Notes: generated from the sequence alone by a model not told the origin. 57,441 nt of DNA from an uncultured Rickettsiales bacterium (GCA_963991775.1 CAXDRM010000001.1:1-57441), one strand, 5' to 3'; positions 4,270-53,425 are shown, counted from the stretch's first letter. Numbers and translations: made by a program.

Positions 4270-4295
4270 ATAACCCACAAAACCACAATCAAACC

Positions 4296-5537
4296 ATGAA
4301 ATCAGTTAAAAATCTTACCTTAATTTTTGCTTTATTATGTAGCAATGCCAGCTTTGCTGAAAATATTTCAGATGCTGAATTTGACGCGCTGCGCAAACGC
4401 ACCCAAAAATTAGAACAAGAACTCAACCAACTTAAAAAGCAAATTGCCAGTGGCAAACATAGACAAGCTAAAAAAAAGCAACATAAATATGATGATTTAC
4501 CTAAAATATCTGCCTATTTCGCTTTTGATAAAACCTTCTATTCTAATGACTCTGGTAATCGACCACATAATTCGGAATTACGTTTTGGACGTATCACTTT
4601 AAAGCATACTATAAAACATGAGCATATGCCTGATTTAAAAGTAAAGGTGGGTGCTGATTTTGCAAGAGGAGATGCTACAATCTATGATGCTTTTATTACT
4701 TTGCCAGTAAATGCTAGCAATCAAATCTCTTTAGGTCATATGCGTGAACCTTTTTCTTTAAATCTACTTTCTTCTCGCGTAAATGATCTCTTTGTAGATC
4801 GCCCAGCTGCAGTTAAAATGTCACCAGCGCGTAATATTGGTATTAGATATGATCATATTAAAAAAAATTACTATGCTAGCATAGGTGCTTTTGGTGATGG
4901 TGTTGATGATCAACAAGATGCTGACGAAACCTTCTCTTACGGAGCTCGCTTTGTTTTTAACCCAGACTTATTTGATAAGATCAAAACTCACCTTGGCTAT
5001 GCTTACCGCTCATCAAATCCCACTGGCGATAGTGTTTCTTACGTAGCTAGTGAGGCCGATATTGCAGCCGGCGAAAATGATCTAGAAACTGGCAATATCA
5101 ATGATGTAAATACTATCAGACAAGATGGTATAGAATTAGCCTTTGTTAATCCTCGCTTCTCTATGAGCTCAGAATATTTTATCACAGAATTAAGCAGAGA
5201 TAATGCTAGCAAAATCGAATTATATGGTACTTATGTGCAATTTCGCGTTGGTCTCAATAAAAAACTTTTAAATTATAATCAGCAAAAACGTACCATCGAT
5301 CTAGCTAAAGATAGCTATAATGTTTTTGAATTAGGCTATCGCTATTCTTATGTTGATTTTAATCATGGTGATTTACGTTCTGGAAATTATGAAAGCCATT
5401 CTTTTGGTTTAAATTATATATATAGCCATAATCTACGCTTCCTATCTAGCTACATTAACATTGAAACCGATGAAAACTCGGTTTATGGTAAAAACTCTCC
5501 TGAAATAGTGGCTTTCCGTGCACAATTTTTATTTTAA
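4296..5537 (+). CDS. Phosphate-selective porin O/P family outer-membrane protein
   Basis: Signal peptide, a coiled-coil N-terminal segment, GHMREPFSLNLLSSRVNDLFVDRP resembling the OprO/OprP core motif, and a C-terminal aromatic residue (…AQFLF). Confidence 0.65.
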   Translation: MKSVKNLTLIFALLCSNASFAENISDAEFDALRKRTQKLEQELNQLKKQIASGKHRQAKKKQHKYDDLPKISAYFAFDKTFYSNDSGNRPHNSELRFGRITLKHTIKHEHMPDLKVKVGADFARGDATIYDAFITLPVNASNQISLGHMREPFSLNLLSSRVNDLFVDRPAAVKMSPARNIGIRYDHIKKNYYASIGAFGDGVDDQQDADETFSYGARFVFNPDLFDKIKTHLGYAYRSSNPTGDSVSYVASEADIAAGENDLETGNINDVNTIRQDGIELAFVNPRFSMSSEYFITELSRDNASKIELYGTYVQFRVGLNKKLLNYNQQKRTIDLAKDSYNVFELGYRYSYVDFNHGDLRSGNYESHSFGLNYIYSHNLRFLSSYINIETDENSVYGKNSPEIVAFRAQFLF

Positions 5538-5545
5538 GAGCATTT

Positions 5546-6451
5546 ATGGAAATATACTTACCTATTGCCGATATACCACTTAATGTATTTTTCTTGCTCT
5601 TTGCAGGCTTCTTTGCTGGTATACTTTCAGGTCTTTTTGGTATTGGTGGCGGCTTTATTATGACACCAATGCTAATCTTTATGGGTGTTAGCCCTGCTAT
5701 AGCCGTAGCCTCTTCAGCTAATCAGATTGTTGCCTCTTCTTATTCTGGCTTTGCAGCTCATGCAAGACGTAATAATGTAGATTTTAAAATGGGCAATGTC
5801 TTAATGCTGGGCGGCTTTATTGGCTCTACCCTCGGCGTATGGATTTTTAGTACCTTGCAAAATTTTGGGCAGCTTGATTTAGTAATTTCTTTATCTTACA
5901 TCATTATTTTAGGCACAATTGGTACTTCAATGGCTTATGAAAGCTTTCGTGCGATTTTTAAAATTAAAAGCAAAGTAAAAAAGATTTCTAAAAAAGACCA
6001 ATTTTTTAAGAAGCTACCTTTTAAAGTAAAATTTCCTAAATCAGAATTAGAAGTAAGTATTTTAGTACCAATTTTAGTCAGTATTGGAGCAGGCATATTA
6101 GTATCAATTATGGGTATTGGCGGAGGATTTTTAATGATCCCTGCTATGATTTATATTTTAGGCATGCCCACTGCAGTAGTAGTAGGAACCTCACTTTACC
6201 AAGTTATTTTTGTCACAAGCAATGTAACTTTTTTACATGCTTATACTACACAATCAGTTGATATTGTCTTAGCGGGTATTTTACTAGCCAGCTCGGTAAT
6301 AGGTGCGCAATTTGGGACAAAATATGGTACTTTAGTTCCTGCAGAAAAATTACGTGCTGTGCTAGCTTTAATGGTCCTTGCAATGGTTATTAAATTAATT
6401 TTGGGCTTTGTGATTGCTCCTGATAATCCTTTTCAGGTAATTGCCCAATGA
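5546..6451 (+). CDS. TauE/SafE (DUF81) family anion-exporter membrane protein
   Basis: Polytopic protein with duplicated halves. Each half carries a GIGGGF[IL]M[TI]P motif. Confidence 0.8.
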   Translation: MEIYLPIADIPLNVFFLLFAGFFAGILSGLFGIGGGFIMTPMLIFMGVSPAIAVASSANQIVASSYSGFAAHARRNNVDFKMGNVLMLGGFIGSTLGVWIFSTLQNFGQLDLVISLSYIIILGTIGTSMAYESFRAIFKIKSKVKKISKKDQFFKKLPFKVKFPKSELEVSILVPILVSIGAGILVSIMGIGGGFLMIPAMIYILGMPTAVVVGTSLYQVIFVTSNVTFLHAYTTQSVDIVLAGILLASSVIGAQFGTKYGTLVPAEKLRAVLALMVLAMVIKLILGFVIAPDNPFQVIAQ

Positions 6452-7185
6452 TAAAAAAACTACTCTTACTAATAATTTGTTTAAATTTATTTACTAATCA
6501 GCTGCAAGCTAAACCTATTATTGCAGATGTAAGTAGCAATGAAATTTTGATTGATACTAGCTTTACTGGACAAAAATTATTTTTGTTTGGAGCGCGTAAT
6601 GTTGCGGGTGATATTGTTATTGTAGTAAGAGGACCTAAAAATAATTATATTGTGCGTAAAAAAGAAGAATTCTTTGGCGTTTGGCTTAATCGCAAACAAA
6701 TGAAATTCTCAGATATTTATGGCTTCTATGCAATTTATAGCTCTGCAGATCCTGATAAACTTAGTAATCCTGAATTACTGAGAAATTTAAATTTAGGCTT
6801 TAATAATCTACCGCTTAGCTATAAAGGCGAAGCTCACTTAGAAGATATAGAACTTTTTAAAGGCGCTATATTAGAGAAACATCTTTCTGATGCGCTTTAT
6901 CTAGAAAATTATCAAGAAATAGAATTAATGGGTGATACTTTATTTAAAACCCATCTTAACTTTACTAAAAAAATTCCGCATGGTTCATATAATATCGAGC
7001 TTTATTTAATCAGAGATAATAATTTAATCGCTACTGAAACCATACCTATTCAAGTAAGAACTACTGGCTTTGAATCTTTTGTGCATCATGCTGCACATCA
7101 GCATAAAATACTTTATGGTATTTTTTGTGTTTTAGCAGCGTTGATGGCTGGTTGGGTTGCTAGTCGTATTTTCTGGAAAGTCTAA
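6448..7185 (+). CDS. TIGR02186 / 'Alph_Pro_TM'-like membrane protein
   Basis: About 245 aa with a signal peptide plus a single C-terminal TM helix. It overlaps the TauE gene by 4 nt, which is the pairing I recall for this alphaproteobacterial family. Confidence 0.5.
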   Translation: MIKKLLLLIICLNLFTNQLQAKPIIADVSSNEILIDTSFTGQKLFLFGARNVAGDIVIVVRGPKNNYIVRKKEEFFGVWLNRKQMKFSDIYGFYAIYSSADPDKLSNPELLRNLNLGFNNLPLSYKGEAHLEDIELFKGAILEKHLSDALYLENYQEIELMGDTLFKTHLNFTKKIPHGSYNIELYLIRDNNLIATETIPIQVRTTGFESFVHHAAHQHKILYGIFCVLAALMAGWVASRIFWKV

Positions 7186-8346: not shown

Positions 8347-9177
8347 ATGGGCAAGGAGCAGGTTAATCCAAAAAAACTAATGAGAGAGAATCTTTCTTTA
8401 GCACATGAAGCTGAACGTCTTGCTGGACAAGCTCAAGATCAGCACGGAAAAATGGAACGCTTTCAAGATGCTTTAGAATTTTATAATGAAGCAAGAAAAT
8501 ATGCTAATCAAGCACAAGATTCCCGTATAGATAATAAGGTATTAATCTATAGATCAATGCAAAAAATCTATTTAAATACCCAACAATATGAACATATAAT
8601 ATACACCCATAATAAAATTAATAATCTAATTGAAAATGAACCCTCAACAACATATCAAAGCTCTTTGCTAGCCAGTATGTTTATGGCCGCCTCAGCATAT
8701 ATAAAAATACAAAAATGGCCTGAAGCTCTAGAATGTTTTAATATAATTAGTGACAAGGGTTTTGCTAAAATAGAAGAGTCACTAGCAGAAAATCAAATTT
8801 ATAACCAAAAAGAACTCGGTAATATCTCTATGCTAGCTATGGCTTATGTCAGTGCTAACAAATTTAAAAACACACAAAATATTGCTTACCAAAATGAAAT
8901 CGAGCAATTCAGTAATAAAATAAAAGCTATATATGATCACAGTCAATCAGATAATCCTGACATGGTAAAATTAAATCAAGATCTCCAACAATTTTGGTTG
9001 GAATTAAAACCTGCAATTGCTAATTATCAAACACAAGAAACAACAAGCAGTTCAGGACGCAAAGCAAAAGTAAAATTAGAAGAAGAAACAGTAATGCCAG
9101 AAGCAAAAAGAAAGACTCTAGAAGAACATGTAAAAAAAAACTCTTCAGAATCTAAAGATAGCTCACCAGGAATTTAA
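8347..9177 (+). CDS. Hypothetical helical-repeat (TPR-like) protein with a K/E/S-rich tail
   Basis: No signal peptide. It has Ala/Tyr/Asn-patterned helices (FQDALEFYNEARKYANQAQD; WPEALECFNII) and a charged C-terminus. Its 3' end overlaps the convergent coaBC by 26 nt. Confidence 0.45.
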   Translation: MGKEQVNPKKLMRENLSLAHEAERLAGQAQDQHGKMERFQDALEFYNEARKYANQAQDSRIDNKVLIYRSMQKIYLNTQQYEHIIYTHNKINNLIENEPSTTYQSSLLASMFMAASAYIKIQKWPEALECFNIISDKGFAKIEESLAENQIYNQKELGNISMLAMAYVSANKFKNTQNIAYQNEIEQFSNKIKAIYDHSQSDNPDMVKLNQDLQQFWLELKPAIANYQTQETTSSSGRKAKVKLEEETVMPEAKRKTLEEHVKKNSSESKDSSPGI

Positions 9178-10372
9178 CCAACCCCATGGCAGCTTGCTCT
9201 TTAGTACCAGATACAGTACGTGGCTCATGGTTTTTGCTATAAAAAGTGAGTTGGTTTTTAGATTCACCAAATACTTTACCACCAGAAACATCATTTAAAG
9301 CAATTACATCACAATTTTTACTATCTAATTTACGCAACGCATTAGCTTCATGATTATTAGTCTCTGCAGCAAAGCCCACCAAAATTTTAGGACGATATTC
9401 TGATTTACCAGTTTCTGCTAAAATATCTGGGTTTTTTTCTAATTTAATTTCTAAAGTCTGTAATTTCTCTTTTTTAATTTTATCTGCAGAATTTACTACC
9501 GGTTTAAAATCAGCAACTGCAGCAGTAAAAATTCCTAGGTCAAATTCTTGCACAGCAATCTCTGTCATAACTGATTTATACATCTCATCAGCAGATACTA
9601 CTTCTATTATCTTAAAATTTTTAGGAATACGGCAATCTGTACAGCCTTTTACCATAGTCACCTCTGCGCCAAATTCAGCAAATTTTTTAGCAAGAGCCAC
9701 ACCTTGTTTACCAGAAGAAGAATTACCAATGAACCTTACCGGATCAATATTTTCTCTAGTACCGCCAACAGTAAGCAAGATTTTTTTACCAGCTAATTTA
9801 GCTTTTAATGCAAAAAAACTAACCATTAATTCTACTACATCTTCTGGCTCTTTAACTCTACCCTCTCCTTCTTCACCGCAAGCTAACATGCCTTTCTCAG
9901 GATAGATAAATTGCAAAGCTCTCTTTTCTAATTCAGCCAAGTTAGTTTGAGTAATTTCATTTTCCCACATCTCAACATTCATAGCAGGTGCCATAAAAAT
10001 TTGCTTATTACTAGCAAGCAACATGGTTGAAGCTAAATCATCAGCGCGACCATGTGCAGCTTTTGCCATAAAATTAGCAGTAGCTGGATAAACTAAAATT
10101 AAATCATTTTTCCGTGATAATTCTATGTGACCTATTTTGCCTTCCATTTCAGCATCAAATAACTCAGAAAAAACATGCTCTATGCCTAAATTTTTAAAAT
10201 CTGCTTCTTTGACAAATTCTTGTGCGGATTTTGTCAGAATTACATCACAAGCTATATTTTGCTTTAGTAACAACTCGGCTAATTTAGGTGCTTTAGTCGC
10301 AGCTATTGAACCTGTAATTACCAATAAAATCGAGTTTTTCATTAAGCTTTTTATAAGAAATTTTTGCGCCAT
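9152..10372 (-). CDS. coaBC: Bifunctional phosphopantothenoylcysteine decarboxylase / phosphopantothenate-cysteine ligase
   Basis: N-terminal flavoprotein domain (ILLVITGSIAATKAP...PAMNVEMW) and a C-terminal CoaB domain (ITVGGTRENIDPVRFIGNSSSGKQG). Confidence 0.9.
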   Translation of the reverse strand: MAQKFLIKSLMKNSILLVITGSIAATKAPKLAELLLKQNIACDVILTKSAQEFVKEADFKNLGIEHVFSELFDAEMEGKIGHIELSRKNDLILVYPATANFMAKAAHGRADDLASTMLLASNKQIFMAPAMNVEMWENEITQTNLAELEKRALQFIYPEKGMLACGEEGEGRVKEPEDVVELMVSFFALKAKLAGKKILLTVGGTRENIDPVRFIGNSSSGKQGVALAKKFAEFGAEVTMVKGCTDCRIPKNFKIIEVVSADEMYKSVMTEIAVQEFDLGIFTAAVADFKPVVNSADKIKKEKLQTLEIKLEKNPDILAETGKSEYRPKILVGFAAETNNHEANALRKLDSKNCDVIALNDVSGGKVFGESKNQLTFYSKNHEPRTVSGTKEQAAMGLVKFLVSYL

Positions 10373-15365: not shown

Positions 15366-16535
15366 ATGTTCAAAATCCTCTTAATTATAATCTTAGCCAG
15401 CCTAATACTAATTAGTGGAGAAAATTTTTTAAACCAATCTGTAAATTTAGAATTTATCTTCGCAGATTATTTAGTAAGCATTAGCTATAAATTAATTTTT
15501 TATGCAGCCTTTATTGTACTCGCTGTAATATTTTTACTATTTTATATTTTTCATCATTTAAGCTTGAATGTTAGACGCTATAATTTTCAAGCAAAACAAA
15601 AAAATTCTGCGCTAACTCTTAACCATATCACCAACTATTTAAGTGCTAAACAATTAGGTGATGCTAGCCAAGCTAATAAATCATTAAAAAAATTAGATCA
15701 GCTGCTTAAAGATCATCCTTTAAAAAATTTACTTGCCCTACAACAAGAAAATAGTAGCACCAAACAGGTTAGCAAAAATCTCAACAAATTATTAAAAAGC
15801 CCTGAAACTAATATTTTTGCTCATCAAGGCTTGGCCGCACTTGCTCATCAAGATAAAAATGAACAGCTAGCCCTATATCATTTAGAAAAAGCTCATAAGC
15901 AAGCACCTGATGCTGTAACTTTAATAAAGAAATTAATAGAGCTTTATTACCATAATCAAGAATGGCATAAGCTAGTTAATTTGATCAATAATAGTAGTAA
16001 AAAGAAATTAATCTCTGGCGCAGATTATAATGTTGAAAGAGCCCTAGCCTACTTAAATTTAGCCGAAATAGAAGAAGATAAAAAAAGCAAATATCTCAAA
16101 TTAGCCAAAAATTATGCACCACAAGAAAAAGCCATACAGCTTGCTTATGCTCAGTTGCTGTTTGAGCAAAATAAAAAATCTGCCTTTATACGCTATTTCA
16201 AACAAATCTGGCCAGTTAATCAAGATGCCGAATTATTTGCGCTTTATCGTAGCCAAAGCGAAGATTATAAAATAGCTAAAAAATTTAAAAATTTAGAAAA
16301 ACTCATCGAGTTAAAACCCTCACCCGAGCTACTAGGCTATTATGCTCAGCTTACTCTTGAACATAAAAAACAGCGCAAAAAAGCTAAATATTACTTAACT
16401 AAAGAATTGGCTAGTAGCAGCTCTAAAAAACTTTATGAAGTAGCTATAGATTTTTTTGAAAATTATCAAGAATCAGTAGCTGATGAAGAATTTTTAGCCA
16501 CCTTAAAAAGCAATATAAATAATTATCAAGATTAG
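15366..16535 (+). CDS. HemY-like protein (HemY_N-type double TM anchor plus TPR-like repeats)
   Basis: 389 aa with two N-terminal TM helices followed by helical repeats. Size and architecture match HemY/COG3898 proteins. Confidence 0.55.
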   Translation: MFKILLIIILASLILISGENFLNQSVNLEFIFADYLVSISYKLIFYAAFIVLAVIFLLFYIFHHLSLNVRRYNFQAKQKNSALTLNHITNYLSAKQLGDASQANKSLKKLDQLLKDHPLKNLLALQQENSSTKQVSKNLNKLLKSPETNIFAHQGLAALAHQDKNEQLALYHLEKAHKQAPDAVTLIKKLIELYYHNQEWHKLVNLINNSSKKKLISGADYNVERALAYLNLAEIEEDKKSKYLKLAKNYAPQEKAIQLAYAQLLFEQNKKSAFIRYFKQIWPVNQDAELFALYRSQSEDYKIAKKFKNLEKLIELKPSPELLGYYAQLTLEHKKQRKKAKYYLTKELASSSSKKLYEVAIDFFENYQESVADEEFLATLKSNINNYQD

Positions 16536-17311
16536 CTTTTACCGCCAATCTCAGTTTTAGCAGCTTGTTGTGCAGCTTTAATATCATCAGGCTTAAGGCT
16601 TTTTCTTTCAAGTGCAGATATTCTCTGGCTATTTACTTCATTATCAACTGAATTCTTTTCAACTTTCGCTTTAAGCAACTCATTTTCTTGCTGCAAATTA
16701 GTAATCTCTTGATTTTGCGCTGTTGTTTGCTCTTTATCAATCAACTTATTTACCTGAGTCTGTGCCGACTCAATAACAAAATTCTTAGAATCTTTGAGTA
16801 AATTAGCGTTGATACCATAGGTTTGATAAGCACCGAATAATAAACCTGCTACTAAACCACCACCTAAACCTATGGCTGCACCGGCTGCAATACCTACTGG
16901 ACCGAAAGCTAAACCAATAAAGATACCAATCAACACACCAGCTATAACTGTACCAAGAGTAATCACACCAAAAGTAAATCTATTAGCATTTTTCTCAGAA
17001 TTATCACGATCTTTAATTTGGGCTGGAGTATCAAATTCTTCACCTAAATCGATACCTGTTTGTTTTTTAAACTCATTATCATATTCTTTTTTAAGAATAT
17101 TCGGCGTAAAACGATTAACTAAAAAACGCAGGAATATTGCAGTAAAACTACTGCCACCTTGCAAAGCTGTTGCTGTCGAACCACCTTGCTCTGCCTCAGC
17201 CTTTTTAAAAATTACATCTGCTCTATGCTGCTTTATCTGCTCTCTAAAAACTGGATCATCCTTGATGCGTTGCTTAATAGCTGCAATATATTCTGTATTT
17301 CTATCTTTCAT
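16532..17311 (-). CDS. Hypothetical membrane protein with a glycine-zipper TM pair and a C-terminal coiled coil
   Basis: GVITLGTVIAGVLIGIFIGLAFGPVGIAAGAAIGLGGGLVAGLLFGAY is followed by heptad-like QNQEITNLQQENELLKAKVEK. No family recognised. Confidence 0.5.
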   Translation of the reverse strand: MKDRNTEYIAAIKQRIKDDPVFREQIKQHRADVIFKKAEAEQGGSTATALQGGSSFTAIFLRFLVNRFTPNILKKEYDNEFKKQTGIDLGEEFDTPAQIKDRDNSEKNANRFTFGVITLGTVIAGVLIGIFIGLAFGPVGIAAGAAIGLGGGLVAGLLFGAYQTYGINANLLKDSKNFVIESAQTQVNKLIDKEQTTAQNQEITNLQQENELLKAKVEKNSVDNEVNSQRISALERKSLKPDDIKAAQQAAKTEIGGKS

Positions 17312-17337
17312 AAATTATCTCTTAATAATATTTAAGA

Positions 17338-17431
17338 ATTTGAGTTGGCTGTGCCTTCGCGCATCAGAAACATTTATAAATGACCGAGCTGTGATTTATT
17401 AAGTTCAAGCGAAGCAGAGTTGACTCTAATT
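17338..17431. repeat. Imperfect palindromic intergenic element, family A, copy 2
   Basis: atttgagttggctgtgccttcgcgcatcagaaacatttataaatga aligns with 7482-7527. The right arm caagcgaagcagagttgactctaatt aligns with 7545-7574. Confidence 0.7.
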
Positions 17432-17475
17432 TTTAAATATTCAAAATACTTAACTTCCCTATTTTAACAAAAAAA

Positions 17476-18654
17476 TCAATTTTCTGCAAGAATTTGGCCA
17501 GCAAAATGTAATGAACCACAAATTAATAACTTATCTGGCTGCTTTTCTTGAGCTAAATAATTCAAGGCTTCTTGGTAAGTGGCAAAATTTTTATTAATTT
17601 TTTGCTGCGCTCTTGCACTTAATTCAGCATATTGTTGCACTTCTTGATTTATTATATCAGCAACAAAATAAAGTTCGATATCAGCTACTGCTATGATCTC
17701 AACAAACTCAGCTACAGCCTTGCGTCCTAACATACTAAGCAATACATATTTGATTTGTTTTTTAGCAATAAAATCCATTAGATTCTTAGCTGCTGCAATA
17801 TTATGCCCACCATCTAACCAAATTTTAGTATCTGGTAAATATTTAAGCTCTACAGGTTGTAAACGCGCTGGCCAATCTAAGTAATCTTTAAAATTATCAG
17901 GCACATCCTGTTTTGTAATTGTCTGAAAAATATGTGCTGCCAAGGTAAAATTTTGCTCTTGATGCATACCTAATAAACCAATATCTGCTGCTCTATTAAT
18001 TTGCTTAGAGAAATCCTCATAAAATTCAGCATGTGGGAAATTTTGGCGGTAATACTCTTCTACTTCTGCTACTTGTTTACCAATAAATAATGCTTCATGT
18101 TCTTTGATGATACCAGCCTTTTCACCTGCTATAGTCACTACATCATTACCTAAAAATTCTTGGTGATCTAAAGATATTGGAGTAATTACTGAAGCTAATT
18201 TATTTTGAAATACATTGGTCGCATCCAACCTACCACCTAAACCTACCTCTATAATATTAAAATCTGCCGGATATTTTTTAAAAGCATAAAAAGCTAAAGC
18301 TGTTGTGGCCTCAAAAAAGGTGATTTGATAGGGTAATTGCTCGGCTATTGCTTGCAATTCAGTAGTTAACTCATCTAGCTGAGCATCACTAATATTTTGA
18401 CCTGCAAGATAGATTCTTTCATTAAATTCAACCAGATGTGGTGAGCTATAAAAATTTACCCGAGCACCTTTTGCTTCTAAAAAAGCTCGTAAATAAGCAG
18501 CTGTTGAACCTTTACCATTAGTACCAGCTATATGAATCACATTAGTTAAAACCTGCTCAGGATTACTTAATTTTTCTAGAAATCCACTGATTCTCTCTAA
18601 TTTCAAATCAATATCTTGGGCACCAACAAAGCTAGGCCATTTAGGTAATTTCAT
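17476..18654 (-). CDS. folC: Bifunctional folylpolyglutamate synthase / dihydrofolate synthase
   Basis: Mur-ligase P-loop HIAGTNGKGST, SPHLVEFNERI and LDGGHN. Its ATG overlaps the NRPS stop (TAATG at 18654). Confidence 0.9.
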   Translation of the reverse strand: MKLPKWPSFVGAQDIDLKLERISGFLEKLSNPEQVLTNVIHIAGTNGKGSTAAYLRAFLEAKGARVNFYSSPHLVEFNERIYLAGQNISDAQLDELTTELQAIAEQLPYQITFFEATTALAFYAFKKYPADFNIIEVGLGGRLDATNVFQNKLASVITPISLDHQEFLGNDVVTIAGEKAGIIKEHEALFIGKQVAEVEEYYRQNFPHAEFYEDFSKQINRAADIGLLGMHQEQNFTLAAHIFQTITKQDVPDNFKDYLDWPARLQPVELKYLPDTKIWLDGGHNIAAAKNLMDFIAKKQIKYVLLSMLGRKAVAEFVEIIAVADIELYFVADIINQEVQQYAELSARAQQKINKNFATYQEALNYLAQEKQPDKLLICGSLHFAGQILAEN

Positions 18655-21600
18655 TAGGCGCTTTGTGCAATATGTTGCTCATTAATATTAACTAAATGAG
18701 CCAAGTAGCGTTGTTTAAATTGAGTAATTTGTTCTGGTTTAAAAAATTTCTGACAATAGCTAATACGAATTATCACTTGGCCATCAACAGTTGCAGCTTC
18801 AATATTCAGTAAATATGCAGCTTTATTTTGCGGATCAATCAATTGTGCATCTTTATTAAACTCTAGTAATTTTAAAGGAAAATTATCAGGTAATTCTGAT
18901 TCAACCCGGCTTACATAATTGAAGAAAAATTTTGGCTCTGCAAATTTTAACAAAGCAGGGTTTTGTTGCTTATAACGCTCTACCATATAGCCCAAACCAT
19001 ATAAAGGAACTTCAGTAATATGCTGACCAAGCTGCTTTATAAAATCTGGTTCTGTTGGTTTTAATGCTATTGGGAATACACTATTTAACCAACCAACTGT
19101 ACGGCTTAAATTAATATCTTCTGCTAGTTTACCACGTGCATGTGAACAAATATTTACAGTAAAACTATCTGTAGCAAAATAATCACGTAAAGCATTCGCA
19201 AAACCTGCCAGCAAAATATGCTGTAACTCACTATCATGTTTTTTAGCAATTACTTCACGTAGCTCGATACTCTGCTCTTTAGTCAAAGTTAACTCTATAT
19301 AATCTTGTGCAGATTCTTCTAACTTTAATGAAGCGAGGCGCTGCCCTATAGCACTACCTGCAGCTAGTTGCTCTTGCCAAAAATCTAATTCTTGCTGCTC
19401 TGCTTTATATGCTGCTAGCCAACTCTGATAAGTTCTTAAATCTGTAGTTTTACGTAAGATATTTTGGGGATTACGTCCTTTAACGAGCTCTTTATAACAA
19501 TCTACTACATCACGCAAAATAATATTGAGTGAATGCATATCGATAGTTAAATGATGTATCAATAAAGCAAATCTAGCTTTATTATCAGCCAATTTAAAAT
19601 ATACTGCTTTAATGAGTGGTGCTTGCTCTAAACTTACAGTTCTTGCTGCTTGATTAAGATAATTATTTTGCACCTGAGTAAGCTGTTCAGCTGCAATATC
19701 TGTTAAGTCATATTCTGCTACTTTTAAAGCTAGATTAGCAGGATGATTATCTAGCTGCCATTTACCAGAAATCTCCCTAAAGGATAAACGTAAACTATCA
19801 TGAAAATTTATTACCTGATTAAGTGCCGCTATTAACTTATTTAATTCTAATTTTTTACTATCAAACTCAACTAAAGCTGCTCTTAACCAATGGTGAGGAT
19901 TTTGATATGCTTCTGCAAAAAATTTATCTTGTCTTGGATGTAACGGGTAAGTACCGGTAATTAACTCATTATTATCATAAGAAATTTTATAATCCTTTGC
20001 ATGAGCTAAAATAGCATTAATAGTACGTTGTGCAAAAAGCTCATGCGGCTCTATATAAATCTTTTTTCTTTCTAAAAGAGCCGATAATTCTAGGGTCATT
20101 AAAGAATCACCACCTAATTCAAAAAAGCTATTTTCAAGACCTATTAATTTTTTATCAATGCGTAATAATTTAGCGAAGATTTCTTGTACAGCTTTTTGCT
20201 GCTTAGTTTTAACGGGTATAATTTTTTGTTGATGAGTAATTTGTGGCTCAGGTAGAGTTTTACGATTTAACTTACCACTTGCTAATTTAGGTAATTCTTG
20301 CAGATAAATAATAAAATTTGGCACCATATATTCTGGTAATTTCTCTGCTAAAAACTCTCTTAATTTAATTTCAGCTATTTCTTGAGCAGCAGCATAATAT
20401 GCGACAATCTGTTTACTCGAATTAATATTTTTAATTAAAACTAATGACTCATCAAGCTCAGGAAATTCTCTTAACACCGCAGCTATTTCATCAAGCTCAA
20501 TACGATAACCACGTAATTTAATTTGATTATCAGCACGTGAGATATATTCAATTTCACCATTAGCAAGATAACGCACCAAATCCCCAGTACGATAAATTTT
20601 ACCCTGCCCATAAGGATTTTCTATGAAACGTTCAGCTGTTAAAGCTGCGCGATTTAAATAACCTTCTGCCAAAGCCGCACCACCAATATAAAGCTCACCA
20701 ATAGTACCTATAGGCTGCAAATTAAGCTGCTCATTTAACACATAAAATTCAGTATTAGTAATTGCTTTACCAATAGTGACCATTTTATCCTGAGCACTGC
20801 ATTCTTTAGAGCTAGCATAAATTGTTGCTTCTGTTGGACCATAAAGATTAAATAAACGCGCTTGACCAAATTTAAAATAATCCTGTACCAAATTTAAACT
20901 TAAAGCCTCACCACATAGTAAAATTTGTTTTAGTGAAGCAAGATCTTGTGGATCATGCAGCGCTTTAAGAATTAAATTAAATGCTGAAGGAACTAAACAG
21001 CTTGTTGTAATTTGTTGCTGCTTAATTAAGGAAATTAAATAAGCGGCACTTTTTGATTTTTCACTATCTGCTAAAATTAGACTAGCACCCATAGAAAGTG
21101 GCCACCAAATTTCTGCCACTGAAATATCAAAACTATAATTAGTATTTTGTAAAATCTTATCAGCAGTTGAAACCGGAAAATCTTCTTGTAACCAACTTAA
21201 GCGTACTGCCAAAGCACGATGAGTTAACATCACACCTTTAGGCTTTCCGGTAGAACCTGAAGTATAAATTAGATAAGCTAAATCATCTAAATTAGCTAAT
21301 TCTGGATTAGTAGCAGCTTGACCTGCACTATATTCGGTTAATTGCTCAATATATAATTTATCCTGCTTTAGCTCTACAAATTTGCTCTGATAAGTATGGC
21401 TAGTAAATAAAAATCTTACCTGAGCATCAGCTAAAATCTCAGCTACTCTTTCAGCAGGTGCAGTAATATCAATCGGCAAATATGTGGCACCAGCTTTTAC
21501 AATAGCTAGCATTACAGTGATTTGCTCAATTGATCTAGGTAATATTAAAGCTATTTTAGCAGCTGGTTCAAGCTGCTTACTCAGTAAAAAATGCGCTAAA

Positions 21601-23081
21601 TAATTAGCTCGCTCATTAAGTTCTTGATAGGTGATTTGGTTAGAGCCAAATTGTAATGCCAGTGCAGTTGGATATTTTGCTGCAGCTGCTTCAATAAATT
21701 CAGGTAGAGTTTTGTGTTGATAAGGGCTCTCTGTTTCATTCCATTCTTTAACTAATAAATTTTCTTCTGACTTATTTACTAAATTATAGCTACTAATTTT
21801 TTGCTCAGGATTATCCTCTATTGCTTGTAGCAAATTTTGCATATGCTCAGTCATTTGCTTAACTTGCTGCTCAGAGAAATTATCTAGCAAATATTCAAAC
21901 CAAAAAGAAATATGTGTTTCACTAATTTCGTAAATAAAAGATAAATCATCATGAATCTCAATCACTTCTGTATCAAGAGAAGTTGAAATAATCCCATCTA
22001 AAGTTAGATTTTGTAATCTAGATACAGTTTCAACCATAGATACATTGAACATCTGGCCAGAAAAATCTTTAGCTGTTTGTCTTTTAGCTTTAACAATATC
22101 TAATGATGAAAGATTTTGATGCTTTTTATCTGACCTGCGTCTCGCATCAATTCGTGCTACTAATTCAATAAAAGTAGGATCACCAGAAAGATCAATATTA
22201 AGCGGAATCACATTTACAAAAAAGCCGAAAGCATTTTTATAACCAACTGGACGGATATTCACCGGATAACCTACCAGCAATTGTTCAGGATTAAAGTAGC
22301 GCTTAGCAAAGCTTGCAAATAAAGCAGCAATTACTGAAAAAATTGAGGTTCTATTACTAAAGGCAAGCTTGCGAAAAAATTTACTCGATTCTGGTGAAAT
22401 CTCAAATTTCTCTCTTTTCGCCAAAAAGCTAGTTCGCTCACATAATTTTTTACCAATATCTAAAACATGTTCTGCTTCAGCTAAATTTTCTTGCCAATAT
22501 TGTTCATCCGCCTGTTGTTTTTCAGCTGATGATTCAGCTTCACGTTCTACTAAATAAGTTAGCCAATTTTTAGCATCACCCTGCTCCTCTTTAAAAGCAG
22601 CAAAACCTTTATTATAAATTTGTGAGATAGATTGCAAAAAATATAGAGCAGAAATACCATCAGAAATAATATGAGGCACCATGCCAATAAAGTAAAATTC
22701 TTGCTCTCCTGCTTTTATCAAAGCTGCACTAATTAAAGGAAAAGCTCGCAAATCTATAGCTTTATTACGTTTTTCTTCTAAAAATTCTAAAGCTTTTTTA
22801 CTAGGATCAACAATATCTTGATTAGTTAAATCAAGATATTCAAGATGATATTTCTCGTCGCTTAAAGCCAAAAACACTTTACCTGCTTCTTCAACAAAAT
22901 AAGAACGCAACAACTCAAAATGACTTACTACATCTTGTGCAGCCTGACAAAATTTAGCCACATCTAATTGACCTTCTAACTTAATTTTTACACAAGTATT
23001 ATAAGATGTGCCGTAAGGATCATATTTCCATTCAATCCATAGACCTTCTTGTTCTCTAGTTAGTGGATATAATTTAGTCAC
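18654..23081 (-). CDS. Single-module non-ribosomal peptide synthetase, domain order C-A-T-C
   Basis: C1 has PHIISDG (aa 136-142). A-domain motifs are LAYLIYTSGSTGKPKG, NLYGPTE, GELYIGG, YRTGD, KLRGYRIEL and SGKLNRK. The T domain has FFELGGDSL (Ser ~993). C2 has HHLTID (aa 1176-1181). There is no TE domain. Confidence 0.95.
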   Translation of the reverse strand: MTKLYPLTREQEGLWIEWKYDPYGTSYNTCVKIKLEGQLDVAKFCQAAQDVVSHFELLRSYFVEEAGKVFLALSDEKYHLEYLDLTNQDIVDPSKKALEFLEEKRNKAIDLRAFPLISAALIKAGEQEFYFIGMVPHIISDGISALYFLQSISQIYNKGFAAFKEEQGDAKNWLTYLVEREAESSAEKQQADEQYWQENLAEAEHVLDIGKKLCERTSFLAKREKFEISPESSKFFRKLAFSNRTSIFSVIAALFASFAKRYFNPEQLLVGYPVNIRPVGYKNAFGFFVNVIPLNIDLSGDPTFIELVARIDARRRSDKKHQNLSSLDIVKAKRQTAKDFSGQMFNVSMVETVSRLQNLTLDGIISTSLDTEVIEIHDDLSFIYEISETHISFWFEYLLDNFSEQQVKQMTEHMQNLLQAIEDNPEQKISSYNLVNKSEENLLVKEWNETESPYQHKTLPEFIEAAAAKYPTALALQFGSNQITYQELNERANYLAHFLLSKQLEPAAKIALILPRSIEQITVMLAIVKAGATYLPIDITAPAERVAEILADAQVRFLFTSHTYQSKFVELKQDKLYIEQLTEYSAGQAATNPELANLDDLAYLIYTSGSTGKPKGVMLTHRALAVRLSWLQEDFPVSTADKILQNTNYSFDISVAEIWWPLSMGASLILADSEKSKSAAYLISLIKQQQITTSCLVPSAFNLILKALHDPQDLASLKQILLCGEALSLNLVQDYFKFGQARLFNLYGPTEATIYASSKECSAQDKMVTIGKAITNTEFYVLNEQLNLQPIGTIGELYIGGAALAEGYLNRAALTAERFIENPYGQGKIYRTGDLVRYLANGEIEYISRADNQIKLRGYRIELDEIAAVLREFPELDESLVLIKNINSSKQIVAYYAAAQEIAEIKLREFLAEKLPEYMVPNFIIYLQELPKLASGKLNRKTLPEPQITHQQKIIPVKTKQQKAVQEIFAKLLRIDKKLIGLENSFFELGGDSLMTLELSALLERKKIYIEPHELFAQRTINAILAHAKDYKISYDNNELITGTYPLHPRQDKFFAEAYQNPHHWLRAALVEFDSKKLELNKLIAALNQVINFHDSLRLSFREISGKWQLDNHPANLALKVAEYDLTDIAAEQLTQVQNNYLNQAARTVSLEQAPLIKAVYFKLADNKARFALLIHHLTIDMHSLNIILRDVVDCYKELVKGRNPQNILRKTTDLRTYQSWLAAYKAEQQELDFWQEQLAAGSAIGQRLASLKLEESAQDYIELTLTKEQSIELREVIAKKHDSELQHILLAGFANALRDYFATDSFTVNICSHARGKLAEDINLSRTVGWLNSVFPIALKPTEPDFIKQLGQHITEVPLYGLGYMVERYKQQNPALLKFAEPKFFFNYVSRVESELPDNFPLKLLEFNKDAQLIDPQNKAAYLLNIEAATVDGQVIIRISYCQKFFKPEQITQFKQRYLAHLVNINEQHIAQSA

Positions 23082-23781
23082 TACTAATTTTTAAAATATT
23101 TTCTATAGCTGGCTTACCTTGTTTTACAGCATTATAATCATGATACATAAAGCTTAATTGCTTAGCAGAAATGATCAGCTGACAAATATTTTTGGTATGA
23201 GTATCAGGTCGTTCCACAAAAGGTCCCCACAGCTCCATATCTTTATATTGTAATTTATGAAATTCAATCATTTTTTGCGCTGAAAAATCAGTTTCTTGGC
23301 AAAAATCTTGATATTGTTCTGCTCGCCATTTTAAGACCTCAGTAGCGCGCCAAGATGAAGAGCTTAAAAAGTAATTTTCTTCTTTAGTTAAATCAACAGA
23401 TTCTAGCTTTTGACCATTCCAATCATAACGCAATTTCTCTGCCGGACTTAATAATAATAAGCTATAAGGACGATATTTATGATAATTAAGCTGCTCTAAT
23501 GCTGCTTTAGCTTGAGCAAAATTATTATCTGTTAAAATTTGTGGAATTATTGCACCACGCGAACTATCAGCTTGAGGATTATGATCATCATAACGATTAA
23601 GCAAAGCTGCAACGACACCATATTGATTTGCCGCTAACCAAGTACCAGCTGATGGATCATCAATGGGCATCAATAAATTATTTTTTAATTGCGGAGGGCT
23701 TTCACTACGTGCACGTTTCTCATCACGATTCATGGTAATCACTAAGTTATCCTCAGTGTTATAATAGGTGAGAGTACACAT
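23074..23781 (-). CDS. NRDE / TANGO2-family protein (predicted Ntn-hydrolase-like)
   Basis: It starts MCTLTYY (Cys2) and contains a literal NRDE motif (ITMNRDEKRA). About 235 aa, the typical family size. It overlaps the NRPS start by 8 nt. Confidence 0.7.
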   Translation of the reverse strand: MCTLTYYNTEDNLVITMNRDEKRARSESPPQLKNNLLMPIDDPSAGTWLAANQYGVVAALLNRYDDHNPQADSSRGAIIPQILTDNNFAQAKAALEQLNYHKYRPYSLLLLSPAEKLRYDWNGQKLESVDLTKEENYFLSSSSWRATEVLKWRAEQYQDFCQETDFSAQKMIEFHKLQYKDMELWGPFVERPDTHTKNICQLIISAKQLSFMYHDYNAVKQGKPAIENILKISSD

Positions 23782-23792
23782 AAATTAAGCTA

Positions 23793-24338
23793 CTAATTTT
23801 GCTGCTGTTCATAAATTTGGGTAGCAAAAGCCTTACCAAAATCAGCTGGTAAAACAATCTGCAATTCTAATGCGATAAGCTTAATCAGAGCAAAATGATG
23901 CACATTATGGTTAATTTGCTCTAGAAGCTCGCGGGCAAAAGTTGAGCTAACTTCAGTTTGGATATCAGTACTAATTGATTCTTTAACCGTAATTTGCCTA
24001 GCTAATTCTTGTGGCGCTAAATCAGCTAAAAAATTAATAAATTCTACTAATTTTTGCTGGGCTAATTCTGGTCTCGTCTCCAGAGCAAGATCACGCTCTC
24101 TCGCATCATAATCAAGCAAAACACTTTGTTGCTCATATGCCTTAAAGCATAATTCTGCTCTTTCAATAACATGCCTTAAATGAGCACCTATTGATGAAGA
24201 ATTTTTATTAGAAAAATTATATTGTGTTTCGCTTAATTCATTAATTAGAGAAAGAGCTTGCTCATAGTTTTTTGCTAAACAAAAACATGCTGAACTTAAA
24301 AAATCTACGCTGTTACTTTCGCTAATTCTAACCTTCAT
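23793..24338 (-). CDS. DinB_2-like four-helix-bundle metal-binding protein
   Basis: 181 aa and helical. His residues sit in HLRHVIER and HNVHHFALIKL, spaced as in the DinB-superfamily His triad. This is a weak by-eye call. Confidence 0.5.
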   Translation of the reverse strand: MKVRISESNSVDFLSSACFCLAKNYEQALSLINELSETQYNFSNKNSSSIGAHLRHVIERAELCFKAYEQQSVLLDYDARERDLALETRPELAQQKLVEFINFLADLAPQELARQITVKESISTDIQTEVSSTFARELLEQINHNVHHFALIKLIALELQIVLPADFGKAFATQIYEQQQN

Positions 24339-26982
24339 TATCTAATGCGGCTTTGGCTGCTGCAAGTCTTGCAATTGGTAAACGATATGGTGAACAAGAA
24401 ACATAATTCAAACCAAGCTGTTGACAAAATTCAATAGATTTTGGTTCACCACCATGTTCACCACAAATTCCTAATTTTAAACCAGCTTTAGTGCTTCTAC
24501 CTCTTTCAGCGGCAAGCTGTACTAATTCGCCAACACCATCTTGATCAAGTCTTACAAATGGATCATGCGCAATGATTTTTTTATCAATATATTCCGCAAT
24601 AAAACCACCTGCATCATCACGTGACATACCAAAAGTAGTTTGGGTTAAATCATTAGTACCAAAACTAAAATATTCTGCCTCTTCTGCAATTTCTGCTGCT
24701 CTGAGGGCTGCTCTTGGTAACTCAATCATCGTACCAATTTGATAGTTAAATTCATGTTGATGCTCAGCTGCTACACGCTCAGCAACTTCAATAATAATTG
24801 CTTTAAGCATTTTTAACTCTTTTACACCAAAAACTAAAGGCACCATAATTTCTATATTAGGCTTGGTTGGAGCTTTCAATGCCGCTCTAAAAATTGCTTC
24901 AGCCTGCATTGCATAAATTTCTGGGAAAGTAATACCTAAACGACAACCACGATGACCTAACATTGGATTAGCTTCATGCAGAGCTTTAATTCTTTCTTTT
25001 AATTTAGCAGTAGATATCTGAGCTGCTGTAGCAACTTGCTCTATCTCTGCTTCACTATGTGGTAAAAATTCATGCAAAGGTGGATCAAGTAATCTGATAT
25101 TTACTGGGCGTTCAGCCATAATAGTAAAAATATCAACAAAATCTTGCTCTTGAATTGGTAGTAATTTTTTAAGCGCCACTTCACGATCTGCTAATGTCTC
25201 AGCTAAAATCATTTCACGTACTGTAGTAATACGATCTTCTTCAAAAAACATATGCTCTGTACGGCACAGACCAATACCTTCAGCGCCAAAACGTACTGCA
25301 GTTTTACAATCATTTGGTGTTTCTGCATTGGTTCTGATTTGCAATTTACGGTAACTATCAGCCCAACTCATTAATTTAGCAAAATCACCAGATAGATCAG
25401 CTTCGATAGTTTTAATACTACCAAGCATCACTTCGCCTGTAGCACCATTAATAGTAAGCTCATCACCTTCTTGTAAAATTGTGCCTAAAATCTCTAGAGT
25501 TTTAGCTGCACCATCAATTTTTAAATCACCAGCACCGCTAACACATGGTTTACCCATACCACGCGCTACTACTGCAGCATGTGAAGTCATACCACCACGC
25601 GCAGTTAAGATACCTTGTGCCGCATTCATACCGCTAATATCTTCAGGACTAGTTTCAACTCTTACTAAAATTACCTTCTCTTTGCGATTAGCAGCACTAA
25701 CTGCATCATCTGCTGTAAATACTATTTTACCTACAGCCGCTCCAGGTGAAGCTGGCAAACCTTTAGTAAGAACTTGTTTTGCAGCATTAGGATCTAAAGT
25801 TGGGTGCAAGAGCTGATCAATAGCATTAGGATCAATACGCTTAATTGCTTCTTTTTCAGAGATCAAACCTTCAGCAACCATATCAACTGCAATTTTAATA
25901 CTAGCTTTGGCAGTACGTTTACCATTTCTGGTTTGCAAGATCCATAATTTACCTTTTTCAATAGTAAATTCGATATCTTGCATATCACGATAATGCTTTT
26001 CTAATTTTTGATAGATTTTAACTAATTCTTGATAAATATCAGGTAAAACCTCTTCCATAGCAGGCAAATCAGAAGCTTGCTTTTCCTTGGAGGCTATAGT
26101 GATCGGACATGGTGTTCTAATACCTGCTACTACATCTTCTCCTTGTGCATTAATCAGATATTCACCATAAAAACTATTTTCGCCATTTGAAGGATCACGT
26201 GTAAAAGCTACCCCAGTCGCGCAATCATCACCCATATTACCAAAAACCATGGCTTGGATATTCACTGCTGTACCCCAATCTTCTGAAATATCATTTAATT
26301 TACGATAAGTTATTGCTCGTGGAATCATCCAAGAATTAAATACTGCACCTATAGCACCCCAAAGCTGTTCTTTAGGATCTTCAGGAAATGCCTCTCCCGT
26401 TACTTCAAGAACCTTCTCTTTAAATTCTGCAACTAATTCTTTAAGATCTTCAGCAGTTAATGCCACATCTTCGTCAACACCACGATCTTGTTTTTTTAGA
26501 TCGATAAAATGCTCAAACTCATAATGATCAACACCAAGAACCACATCTCCATACATTTGTACAAAGCGACGATATGAATCATAAACAAAACGTGGATTAC
26601 CTGATTTTTCAGCCAGACTTTCTGCTACTTGATCATTAATACCTAAATTTAAAACCGTATCCATCATACCAGGCATTGAAACCCGAGCTCCAGATCTTAC
26701 TGAAACCAAAAGAGGATTAGCTGGATCACCAAATTTTTTAGAAATTTTACTCTCTAACTCCGCAATTTTTTGCTCTAGCTGCTCAGCTAAATCACTTGGA
26801 TAATTTTTACCTTGCTTATAATAATGGGTGCAAACTTCTGTCGTAAGAGTAATACCTGGCGGTACTGGCACACCAATTTTTGACATTTCTGCTAAATTTG
26901 CTCCTTTTCCACCAAGCAAATTACGCAAACCAGCATCTCCTTCCGCAGAGCCGTCACCAAAGCTATAAACCCATTTTGTCAT
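24328..26982 (-). CDS. ppdK: Pyruvate, phosphate dikinase
   Basis: 884 aa with LLGGKGANLAEM, GGMTSHAAVVARG (phospho-His loop) and FFSFGTNDLTQ. Confidence 0.97.
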   Translation of the reverse strand: MTKWVYSFGDGSAEGDAGLRNLLGGKGANLAEMSKIGVPVPPGITLTTEVCTHYYKQGKNYPSDLAEQLEQKIAELESKISKKFGDPANPLLVSVRSGARVSMPGMMDTVLNLGINDQVAESLAEKSGNPRFVYDSYRRFVQMYGDVVLGVDHYEFEHFIDLKKQDRGVDEDVALTAEDLKELVAEFKEKVLEVTGEAFPEDPKEQLWGAIGAVFNSWMIPRAITYRKLNDISEDWGTAVNIQAMVFGNMGDDCATGVAFTRDPSNGENSFYGEYLINAQGEDVVAGIRTPCPITIASKEKQASDLPAMEEVLPDIYQELVKIYQKLEKHYRDMQDIEFTIEKGKLWILQTRNGKRTAKASIKIAVDMVAEGLISEKEAIKRIDPNAIDQLLHPTLDPNAAKQVLTKGLPASPGAAVGKIVFTADDAVSAANRKEKVILVRVETSPEDISGMNAAQGILTARGGMTSHAAVVARGMGKPCVSGAGDLKIDGAAKTLEILGTILQEGDELTINGATGEVMLGSIKTIEADLSGDFAKLMSWADSYRKLQIRTNAETPNDCKTAVRFGAEGIGLCRTEHMFFEEDRITTVREMILAETLADREVALKKLLPIQEQDFVDIFTIMAERPVNIRLLDPPLHEFLPHSEAEIEQVATAAQISTAKLKERIKALHEANPMLGHRGCRLGITFPEIYAMQAEAIFRAALKAPTKPNIEIMVPLVFGVKELKMLKAIIIEVAERVAAEHQHEFNYQIGTMIELPRAALRAAEIAEEAEYFSFGTNDLTQTTFGMSRDDAGGFIAEYIDKKIIAHDPFVRLDQDGVGELVQLAAERGRSTKAGLKLGICGEHGGEPKSIEFCQQLGLNYVSCSPYRLPIARLAAAKAALDNEG

Positions 26983-26990
26983 GACTTATT

Positions 26991-53421: not shown

Positions 53422-53425
53422 TATA

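Follow-up and report, generated by a model that had tools for sequence, protein, structure and literature searches.

What are three genes that do not look like housekeeping genes doing in the middle of a housekeeping gene string? The question is raised by a 57,441-nt stretch of DNA (the window) from an uncultured Rickettsiales bacterium (GCA_963991775.1 CAXDRM010000001.1:1-57441), on the minus strand of which eight open reading frames (ORFs), called between 17.4 and 30.4 kb, run head to tail. Three of them encode a DinB-like protein of 181 amino acids (aa) (23793-24338), a 235-aa protein of the NRDE/TANGO2 family (23074-23781) and a 1475-aa nonribosomal peptide synthetase (NRPS; 18654-23081). 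Comparison with their relatives showed these genes to form a conserved, vertically inherited biosynthetic cassette, in which a DinB-fold protein and an NRDE/TANGO2-family protein of the N-terminal nucleophile (Cys-Ntn) type accompany a stand-alone C-A-T-E* NRPS; that is, one with condensation (C), adenylation (A) and carrier (T) domains followed by an epimerization-type domain (E*). The system recurs over dozens of loci with an invariant Glu-to-Cys change in its E-like end domain, no release domain, a DinB-like partner and, frequently, an NRDE partner. The initial annotation had supposed this partnership to be undescribed, and the literature searched indeed gave no link between NRDE/TANGO2 or DinB proteins and NRPS or aminolipid genes.

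The three genes occur together well outside this genome. A Rickettsiales metagenome-assembled genome (MAG; L009/L012) carries DinB-like, NRDE and NRPS genes with an NRDE/NRPS overlap that is again 8 nt, and an 884-kb JGI contig (L011) carries these genes in identical order, with NRDE and the NRPS overlapping by 26 nt; in both, the NRPS is preceded by a 167-168-aa homologue of the DinB-like protein and a TANGO2 protein of 227-231 aa. A metagenome scan with the alignment of the first NRPS condensation domain (C1) returned 19 loci, in 17 of which a DinB-like gene is directly beside the NRPS gene (two divergent); ten of these 17 also have NRDE (nine distinct, as L095 and L096 are near-identical). 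Across 23 NRPS-family loci (the 19 metagenome loci, the window, L011 and L012) the DinB-like gene directly adjoins the NRPS in 20 and NRDE lies between them in about 13, making the DinB-like protein the tighter NRPS partner. A co-occurrence of this extent shows that the partnership is not a chance neighbourhood. In NRPS loci that lack NRDE a small membrane protein occurs as an extra component. The closest NRPS homologue overall (43% identity; L007 8001-12497, on a TARA scaffold) lies by itself between infC and the gene for an rsmD-like methyltransferase, with no DinB-like or NRDE gene within 8 kb.

One further locus, L092, retains the complete order ppdK-DinB-NRDE-NRPS-folC, with protein identities to the window of 77, 33, 36, 45 and 46% respectively. 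As the order is kept and the NRPS and folC have diverged to about the same degree, the cassette has descended vertically in place for a long time, and this synteny at 45-46% identity together with a uniform composition agrees with the earlier description of the cassette as old and integrated. Its genes have a GC content of 0.33-0.35 and a third-position GC content (GC3) of 0.18-0.24, the same as those of neighbouring genes. Recent acquisition as an island was ruled out by this uniformity of GC and GC3, by synteny kept at 45% identity and by the absence of mobile-element genes beside the cassette.

ORF calling reproduced exactly the coordinates and order first given for the eight genes, all on the minus strand. 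Upstream of the cassette Pfam and NCBIfam identified glyQ (29481-30341) and glyS (26991-29111), with panD (29104-29457) between them, and then ppdK (24328-26982); folC (17476-18654; TIGR01499, E 5e-94) forms the downstream flank. The panD and glyS ORFs overlap by 8 nt, as described, and the junctions of the cassette were likewise borne out on direct reading: the ppdK stop and the DinB-like start overlap by 11 nt (ATGAAGGTTAG) and NRDE and the NRPS gene by 8 nt (GTGACTAA), while the NRPS stop and the folC start have TAATG in common; the DinB-like and NRDE genes are separated by a gap of 11 nt. A promoter and terminator scan of positions 17000-31000 gave 44 and 10 predictions against 53 and 8.4 in shuffled sequence, which is no excess and is uninformative on operon structure. 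We read the overlaps with ppdK and folC as operon packing in a compact genome and not as a sign of shared chemistry. Synteny with ppdK is common only to the window and L092, and ppdK is not part of the cassette's function. The same applies to the folC coupling, from which a link to pterin, pABA or glutamate chemistry had been suggested: folC follows the NRPS gene only in the window and L092, and a folate or pterin link was rejected on the grounds that the adjacency of folC and ppdK is specific to this lineage.

Elsewhere the cassette sits in other housekeeping contexts, for example glnE or aromatic amino-acid genes, and the other loci that extend past the NRPS show unrelated neighbours (an RND pump, glnE, infC, an alpha/beta-hydrolase, MFS). 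In L011, L012 and L093 the cassette lies next to an RND pump, which in turn comes after the end of a bufferin-type operon (HvfC_N, DoxX). Bufferin-type genes (BufA1, MbnB, HvfC_N, DoxX) in fact recur beside NRDE in L011 (1-6761), L012 (equivalent to L009 1-6799), L093 (172-7478) and L003/L005 (2800-8000), the last of these from Hyphomonadaceae and together with a TonB receptor; DoxX and YHS-like genes are recurrent beside DinB-NRDE pairs in L013-L035 and L111. This recurrence may indicate a link with copper or thiol stress. In a gammaproteobacterial clade (L098 14589-16577, L099 12389-13039 and L103 14580-16592) an Abhydrolase_11 gene directly follows the NRPS, whose stop it overlaps by 8 nt (L098) or 26 nt (L099), and in L098 and L103 it is followed by an MFS gene. 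The Abhydrolase_11 protein, absent from the window, is a candidate trans-acting releasing or O-acylating enzyme.

Pfam and NCBIfam searches supported the families first assigned to the three proteins and recovered all domains of the NRPS (Condensation twice, AMP-binding and PP-binding). A database search placed the NRPS in a family of 1430-1600-aa proteins with 97-100% coverage and 34-45% identity to it, and 62 full-length relatives were aligned. C1 (aa 1-445; 21747-23081) has the motif VPHIISDG (nt 22656-22679), and the form VPHxxSDG is found in all 62 relatives, so that the second His, which is the catalytic one of the HHxxxDG motif of condensation domains, is kept along with the DG while the first His is Pro family-wide. 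C1 begins at NRPS residue 3 with no carrier domain upstream, the position expected of a starter C domain, and no carrier protein was found near the NRPS in any of about 20 loci examined. In a search of PDB sequences its nearest solved relatives were nonetheless elongation C domains, with BacC at 110, SrfA-C at 91 and TycB1 at 87.5 bits (range for elongation domains, 77-110).

The A domain (aa ~452-950; 20232-21728) matches AMP-binding at E 1e-85 and TIGR01733 at E 1e-128, and retains the equivalents of Asp235 and Lys517 (GrsA numbering) as Asp652 and Lys937. Stachelhaus positions were placed by hand through GrsA numbering and then extracted from the family alignment, giving the code DIACLCLIYK for the window and an almost invariant DVACLA(V/F/I/L)IYK for the family; the pocket is hydrophobic and without a charged residue. 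The top PDB match of the domain was LgrA, with the best-scoring stretch in its module-2, glycine-activating A domain (the closest single A-domain match was entry 8xjz_C), and the code of that domain, DIANLCIIYK, is identical to the window code at 8 of 10 positions. Glycine is on this account our best guess from sequence for the likeliest substrate, and it would suit an E-like domain lacking the Glu of an epimerase. The T domain (19986-20210; PP-binding, E 6e-13) has Ser993 available for phosphopantetheine in the motif GGDSLM (nt 20097-20114), which is conserved in the family.

The initial annotation had read the NRPS as C-A-T-C, with a terminal C domain releasing the product onto a free nucleophile. 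This was not supported. Against all PDB sequences, residues 1040-1475 (18657-19964) scored 126-163 bits (E 1e-46 to 2e-35) with the solved E domains of PvdL, TycA, TycB (6ta8), GrsA PCP-E and BacC, but at most 39 bits (E 4e-9 or weaker) with ordinary C domains, a difference large enough to make the architecture C-A-T-E*. A terminal amide- or ester-forming C domain was rejected on the same scores. Aligned with the E domain of PvdL, the motif NICSHARG (nt 19131-19154) falls opposite LEGHGRE, so that the catalytic Glu is replaced by Cys1312, and this Cys is invariant, as C.HGR, in all 62 aligned relatives. The second motif (HHLTIDM in the window, nt 19536-19559) is HHLL.D(M/I).S in the family in place of HHxxxDG(W/V)S, with the His kept, and the E motifs LLPRxxKFF, RTVGWxNTVxP and FFNYV are retained. 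The domain belongs to the E clade by sequence, therefore, but of the catalytic His and Glu it keeps only the His; with Cys for Glu and a probably achiral substrate, E* cannot be a normal epimerase, and it should not be filed as a working one but as E-like. A phmmer search with E* across the libraries was uninformative, its top list being giant multimodular NRPSs with summed scores. No release domain in cis (thioesterase (TE), R or terminal C) was found in the NRPS by Pfam, the end domain being of E type, and on the lack of a TE domain the initial annotation was right.

The DinB-like protein matches DinB_2 at 28.2 bits, above the Pfam cut-off of 24.8, and has no NCBIfam model match and no PDB sequence match. 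A database search gave 263 homologues, and 52 aligned homologues are invariant at His53, Arg55, His56, Tyr77, Asp78, Arg80, Arg82, Arg136, Glu137, His144, His147 and His148; the protein had been described as a His-triad DinB_2-like protein, and the five invariant His residues are candidates for metal binding. AlphaFold models of this protein and of NRDE were built from alignments of 50-52 sequences. The DinB-like model (pLDDT 93) matched YizA, YfiT, the Mycobacterium tuberculosis mycothiol S-transferase and other DinB proteins in Foldseek at probability 1.0 and TM 0.5-0.63, and by its above-threshold profile and matching predicted fold the protein is a member of the DinB/YfiT superfamily. A 34% identical paralogue, P0252 (L112/L113, 8001-8576, on contigs of up to 1.5 Mb), lies alone just upstream of iscR-iscS-iscU-iscA-hscBA-fdx, showing that not every member of the DinB subfamily is tied to NRDE or an NRPS.

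The NRDE protein matches Pfam TANGO2 (E 1.5e-17), with no NCBIfam model match and a best PDB sequence match of E 0.33. It starts Met-Cys-Thr, and Cys2, proposed at the outset as the expected Ntn nucleophile, is invariant in 50 homologues along with a set of polar residues, a pattern consistent with that role given the predicted Cys-Ntn fold. The AlphaFold model (pLDDT 95) matched human TANGO2 (E 3e-11), the bacterial protein CV2077 and then isopenicillin-N acyltransferase (TM 0.71), with bile-salt hydrolases, penicillin V acylases, NAAA and acid ceramidase as further matches; all these structural neighbours are enzymes of the Cys-Ntn type that form or cleave N-acyl amides, or else use acyl-CoA. 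The protein is a member of NRDE/TANGO2 (PF05742) with a modelled Cys-Ntn hydrolase fold (four-layer alpha-beta-beta-alpha) and predicted catalysis by Cys2. No NRDE/TANGO2 protein has a known substrate, and the published roles, haem trafficking and acyl-CoA binding, are in mutual conflict: TANGO2 has been described as a probable Cys-Ntn hydrolase whose haem binding is non-specific by crystallography (PMC13044924) and, elsewhere, as an acyl-CoA binder (PMC11867700).

The DinB-like and NRDE proteins also occur together without the NRPS. A genome scan with the NRDE alignment, in which neighbours were tested by tblastn, gave 80 loci, and a quarter of them (20/80) have an adjacent DinB-like and NRDE pair with no NRPS within 10 kb. 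Hosts of the pair include Calditrichia, Bdellovibrionota, many Gammaproteobacteria and 'Pseudomonadales' MAGs, Phycisphaerae, Chitinophagaceae, Bacteroidota and a cultured Herbaspirillum. When L111 is added to make a set of 21 loci, neighbour clustering shows that every one adjoins either an OlsF/OlsB/GlsB-like GNAT (PF13444) or an ATP-grasp-like ligase. The OlsF-like partner has a full-length match to NCBIfam OlsF (E 7e-109), below the equivalog cut-off, and also matches GlsB and GlsA; the OlsB-like partner is in some loci accompanied by a PlsC-type acyltransferase; and the ATP-grasp-like ligase is in some cases fused to, or a neighbour of, an alpha/beta-hydrolase and a DedA/VTT protein (L013, L111). 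In Herbaspirillum sp. Sphag1AN (L111) the order is YHS, ORF, alpha/beta-hydrolase, VTT, ATP-grasp-like, DinB-like and TANGO2, accompanied by an OlsB-like gene in divergent orientation. Trees built by neighbour joining for the DinB-like protein and for NRDE are congruent, and the NRPS-linked pairs form two clades, one of which (L095, L098, L099, L100, L103 and L105) is nested among OlsB/OlsF-linked pairs; this nesting indicates that the pair stayed together while its amide-forming partner was swapped. PF13444 GNAT and PlsC-type acyltransferase domains were found by Pfam only in the loci without the NRPS and not in the window cassette, which by analogy may work like the OlsF/OlsB/GlsB synthases but is not a member of them.

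We therefore favour, at a probability of roughly 40%, an NRPS route to an N-acyl-glycine-type lipoamino acid in which NRDE and the DinB-like protein serve as off-loading or tailoring enzymes. The A domain would charge the carrier domain with glycine or a different small neutral alpha-amino acid and C1 would acylate the amino group of that residue, with a donor drawn from primary metabolism, as there is never another carrier protein, aryl-acid ligase or NRPS nearby; most simply this would be a fatty acyl-acyl carrier protein (ACP) or acyl-CoA. E* would then use its His/Cys pair to act on the tethered N-acyl-aminoacyl thioester in a further step other than epimerization, either acyl transfer or, by analogy with OlsA/GlsA, O-acylation of a 3-hydroxyacyl chain. 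Cys2 of NRDE could attack the pantetheine thioester as isopenicillin-N acyltransferase attacks acyl-CoA, and the DinB-like protein could take part in off-loading or tailoring as a metal-dependent hydrolase or a thiol-dependent transferase. The product, an N-acyl amino acid, lipoamino acid or aminolipid-type compound, would leave the carrier via these trans-acting partners, and the NRPS would stand in for the OlsF/OlsB/GlsB-type synthases found with the same pair elsewhere. That aminolipids are formed by several unrelated enzyme types is documented (OlsBA, OlsF, OlsH/OlsI; PMC12971839).

A wider proposal can be built on this route, although we hold it to be doubtful as a whole. The DinB-like/NRDE pair might be a general accessory module of bacterial lipoamino-acid metabolism that is coupled to GNAT synthases, an ATP-grasp ligase or a C-A-T-E* NRPS; NRDE/TANGO2 proteins might act on acyl-thioesters or N-acyl amides as transacylases or amidases that depend on their Cys; and E*, with Cys for Glu, might constitute a new catalytic subtype of the condensation superfamily.

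Several observations weigh against the lipoamino-acid route. NRDE is missing from about a third of the NRPS loci and so cannot be an obligatory release enzyme, and the subfamily of the DinB-like protein has no characterised member. C1 scores only 55-60 bits against the 7c1h, 7c1k and 7c1p chains, presumably the starter (lipoinitiation) domain RzmA-Cs, with few solved references available for comparison; since it is closer to elongation than to starter references, the acyl donor follows from context only. The glycine assignment depends on a single reference code, with which the family consensus agrees at only 6 of 10 positions, and the window code is unlike the typical glycine code DILQLGLIWK. 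Every functional link is one of guilt by association, and adjacency to aminolipid synthases is no proof of a shared pathway. A Pfam scan of most window ORFs of at least 110 aa (four ORFs at 51820-57295 and those under 110 aa lay outside it) found no phosphopantetheinyl transferase (PPTase), ACP, MbtH, transposase or integrase. The PPTase and MbtH parts of the initial statement that the window has no PPTase, MbtH or exporter thus stand for the ORFs scanned, and the exporter part for the window only, since relatives carry RND or MFS genes beside the cassette. In addition, the only bacterial NRDE homologue studied experimentally, Shewanella HtpA (SO0126, DUF833/TANGO2 family), has been assigned to haem trafficking (PMC10470608).

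The report on HtpA suggests a quite different role for NRDE, namely that it traffics haem and adjoins the NRPS gene as an operon hitch-hiker, so that the NRPS has the DinB-like protein as its only working partner, if it has either of the two. Its patchy presence among NRPS loci would then be expected, as would the context of its closest homologues (35% identity, from Hyphomonadaceae), which have no NRPS nearby and adjoin TonB receptors and BufA1/MbnB operons. A passenger would not, however, be expected to keep overlapping the NRPS gene (by 8 nt in the window and L009 and 26 nt in L011) or to have a tree congruent with that of the DinB-like protein; the invariance of Cys2 and the polar residues is that of an enzyme, and the crystallographic finding of non-specific haem binding by TANGO2 points the same way, which leaves this explanation distinctly improbable. 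The same TonB and BufA1/MbnB neighbours can be combined with the RND systems and bufferin-type operon tails directly preceding the cassette in L011, L012 and L093, the downstream MFS gene in L098 and L103, the DoxX/YHS-like genes recurring beside DinB-NRDE pairs and the presence of thiol S-transferases among DinB-fold proteins, to suggest that the NRPS makes a small secreted metabolite with no relation to membrane lipids, for example a metal-binding or signalling one, that is exported by RND or MFS proteins, with DinB and NRDE providing tailoring or self-protection in metal or thiol stress. We regard this as unlikely, because no metal-chelating groups are obvious in a single small neutral amino acid, these exporters occur only in certain lineages and are absent from the window, and the OlsF/OlsB-like synthases beside the pair are left unexplained.

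Were the DinB-like protein instead a metal-dependent S-transferase, in keeping with the match of its model to mycothiol S-transferase and YfiT, the pair could belong to low-molecular-weight-thiol chemistry, with NRDE, by its predicted Cys-Ntn amidase fold, trimming a thiol conjugate and the NRPS, ATP-grasp or GNAT enzyme supplying an amide scaffold; the ATP-grasp ligase as an alternative partner suits this scheme, and EgtB/EgtC and LmbV/LmbE would be possible analogies. The A-domain pocket is, however, entirely hydrophobic, and no cassette has a cysteine-specific signature, a sulfur-transfer gene or an FGE-type domain, so that we think it improbable. Finally, E* might be a hand-off platform to C1 of a second copy of the enzyme, giving by iteration in trans a di- or oligopeptide such as oligoglycine that the partners release. 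C1 is most like C domains fed by E-containing modules (BacC, SrfA-C, TycB1), the carrier motif is GGDS, the variant that precedes E domains, and the layout A(Gly)-T-E(inactive) is also that of LgrA module 2; but the bit-score gaps between C subtypes are small, we know of no precedent for a self-docking C-A-T-E enzyme and the link with aminolipid synthases goes unexplained, and we consider such a mechanism very improbable.

The rest of the window resembles a small alphaproteobacterial genome, with genes for Alph_Pro_TM, NDUFS4-like and ELM1-like proteins, a virB8-virB11 block, coaBC, metE, pgk and rpsA; Rfam found two tRNAs only. The scaffold is also present in ENA and Logan assemblies. As coaBC (9152-10372, minus strand) is present in the same window as panD, the organism seems to keep the beta-alanine/CoA (phosphopantetheine) route needed by the NRPS carrier domain. 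In a row at 3259-7185 on the plus strand are genes for a PstS-like phosphate-binding protein, a phosphate-selective porin O/P, a TauE/SafE exporter and an Alph_Pro_TM protein, which suggests phosphate scavenging; phosphorus-free aminolipids are made by bacteria under phosphate scavenging conditions (PMC12971839). A type IV secretion block on the minus strand (35525-39579) comprises virB11 (T2SSE), virB10 (TrbI), virB9 (CagX) and virB8, and is followed by a tsaB-like gene (39592-40215) and a tRNA (40236-40308); no other conjugation or mobile-element genes were seen among the scanned window ORFs. Its layout is similar to the vir-type clusters of Rickettsiales-like bacteria. Two gene fusions, both on the minus strand, are aroA-cmk (EPSP synthase and cytidylate kinase; 46307-48265), just upstream of rpsA, and msrB-msrA (SelR and PMSR; 40415-41422). 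Also present are two ConA-like lectin (Laminin_G_3) proteins (656-1534 and 31465-32418, both minus strand), an ORF of 846 aa without a Pfam match, located where the window is richest in AT (32796-35336, plus strand; GC 0.31), and a 259-aa ORF without a Pfam or NCBIfam match (16532-17311, minus strand) that is convergent with a hemY-like gene and overlaps it by 4 nt.

These findings describe a widespread, uncharacterised gene cluster family of uncultured aquatic Alpha- and Gammaproteobacteria whose E* domain is unlike any E or C subtype so far described in carrying an invariant Cys at the position of the catalytic Glu of E domains, and they show bacterial members of the TANGO2/NRDE family to share conserved operons with N-acyl-amino-acid-forming enzymes. 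What TANGO2 does is disputed (haem chaperone, acyl-CoA binder or Ntn hydrolase) and the human member causes metabolic disease; if the accessory-module proposal were true, the family would gain a concrete substrate class that is testable in bacteria, and Herbaspirillum sp. Sphag1AN, as a culturable carrier of the DinB-NRDE pair, makes the idea testable. If the product were a phosphorus-free lipoamino acid, the NRPS would represent a fourth route to bacterial aminolipids.

The two small proteins are set apart from known systems mainly by sequence. The DinB-like protein has the four-helix-bundle fold and conserved His residues of the DinB/YfiT superfamily (YfiT, YizA, mycothiol S-transferase, BstA and ClbS), but is only 10-18% identical to its members, and its own subfamily adds the invariant Arg55, Tyr77, Asp78, Arg80, Arg82, Arg136 and Glu137. 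NRDE similarly has the predicted fold and N-terminal Cys of the Cys-Ntn amidases and acyltransferases and of TANGO2/HtpA, yet its sequence identity with them is only 9-18%. For the NRPS, the uni-modular C-A-T-TE lipoamino-acid NRPS SwrW (serrawettin W1 synthetase) offers one comparison. Another is OaaC, a free-standing C domain reported from an NRPS-like fatty-acid-amide pathway (PMC13310621). What is proposed here for the window enzyme is similar, a single module whose C domain would N-acylate one amino acid and so yield an aminolipid or fatty acid amide; the window NRPS differs in having no TE, an E-like end, DinB and NRDE partners and a lipoinitiation that is putative.

In domain order the closest parallel is LgrA, an F-A-PCP-C-A-PCP-E enzyme with Val and Gly as substrates and an inactive E domain (PMC10510592). 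Its module 2 and the window NRPS have the same order of domains and 8 of 10 identical code positions, and both probably end in E domains that do not work as epimerases. LgrA, however, is part of a 16-module assembly line and passes its chain to LgrB, whereas the window module stands alone; the window C1 is not particularly close to the C domain of LgrA, and in E* the catalytic Glu is replaced by an invariant Cys. The OlsBA, OlsF, GlsBA and OlsHI pathways to acyloxyacyl aminolipids are related to the cassette in another way, as the DinB-NRDE pair adjoins OlsF-, OlsB- or GlsB-like genes and the proposed product class is shared. Unlike those pathways, the chemistry proposed for the window would run on a carrier-bound thioester, and a scheme of N-acylation and O-acylation in two steps could, as a functional analogy only, map onto C1 and E*.

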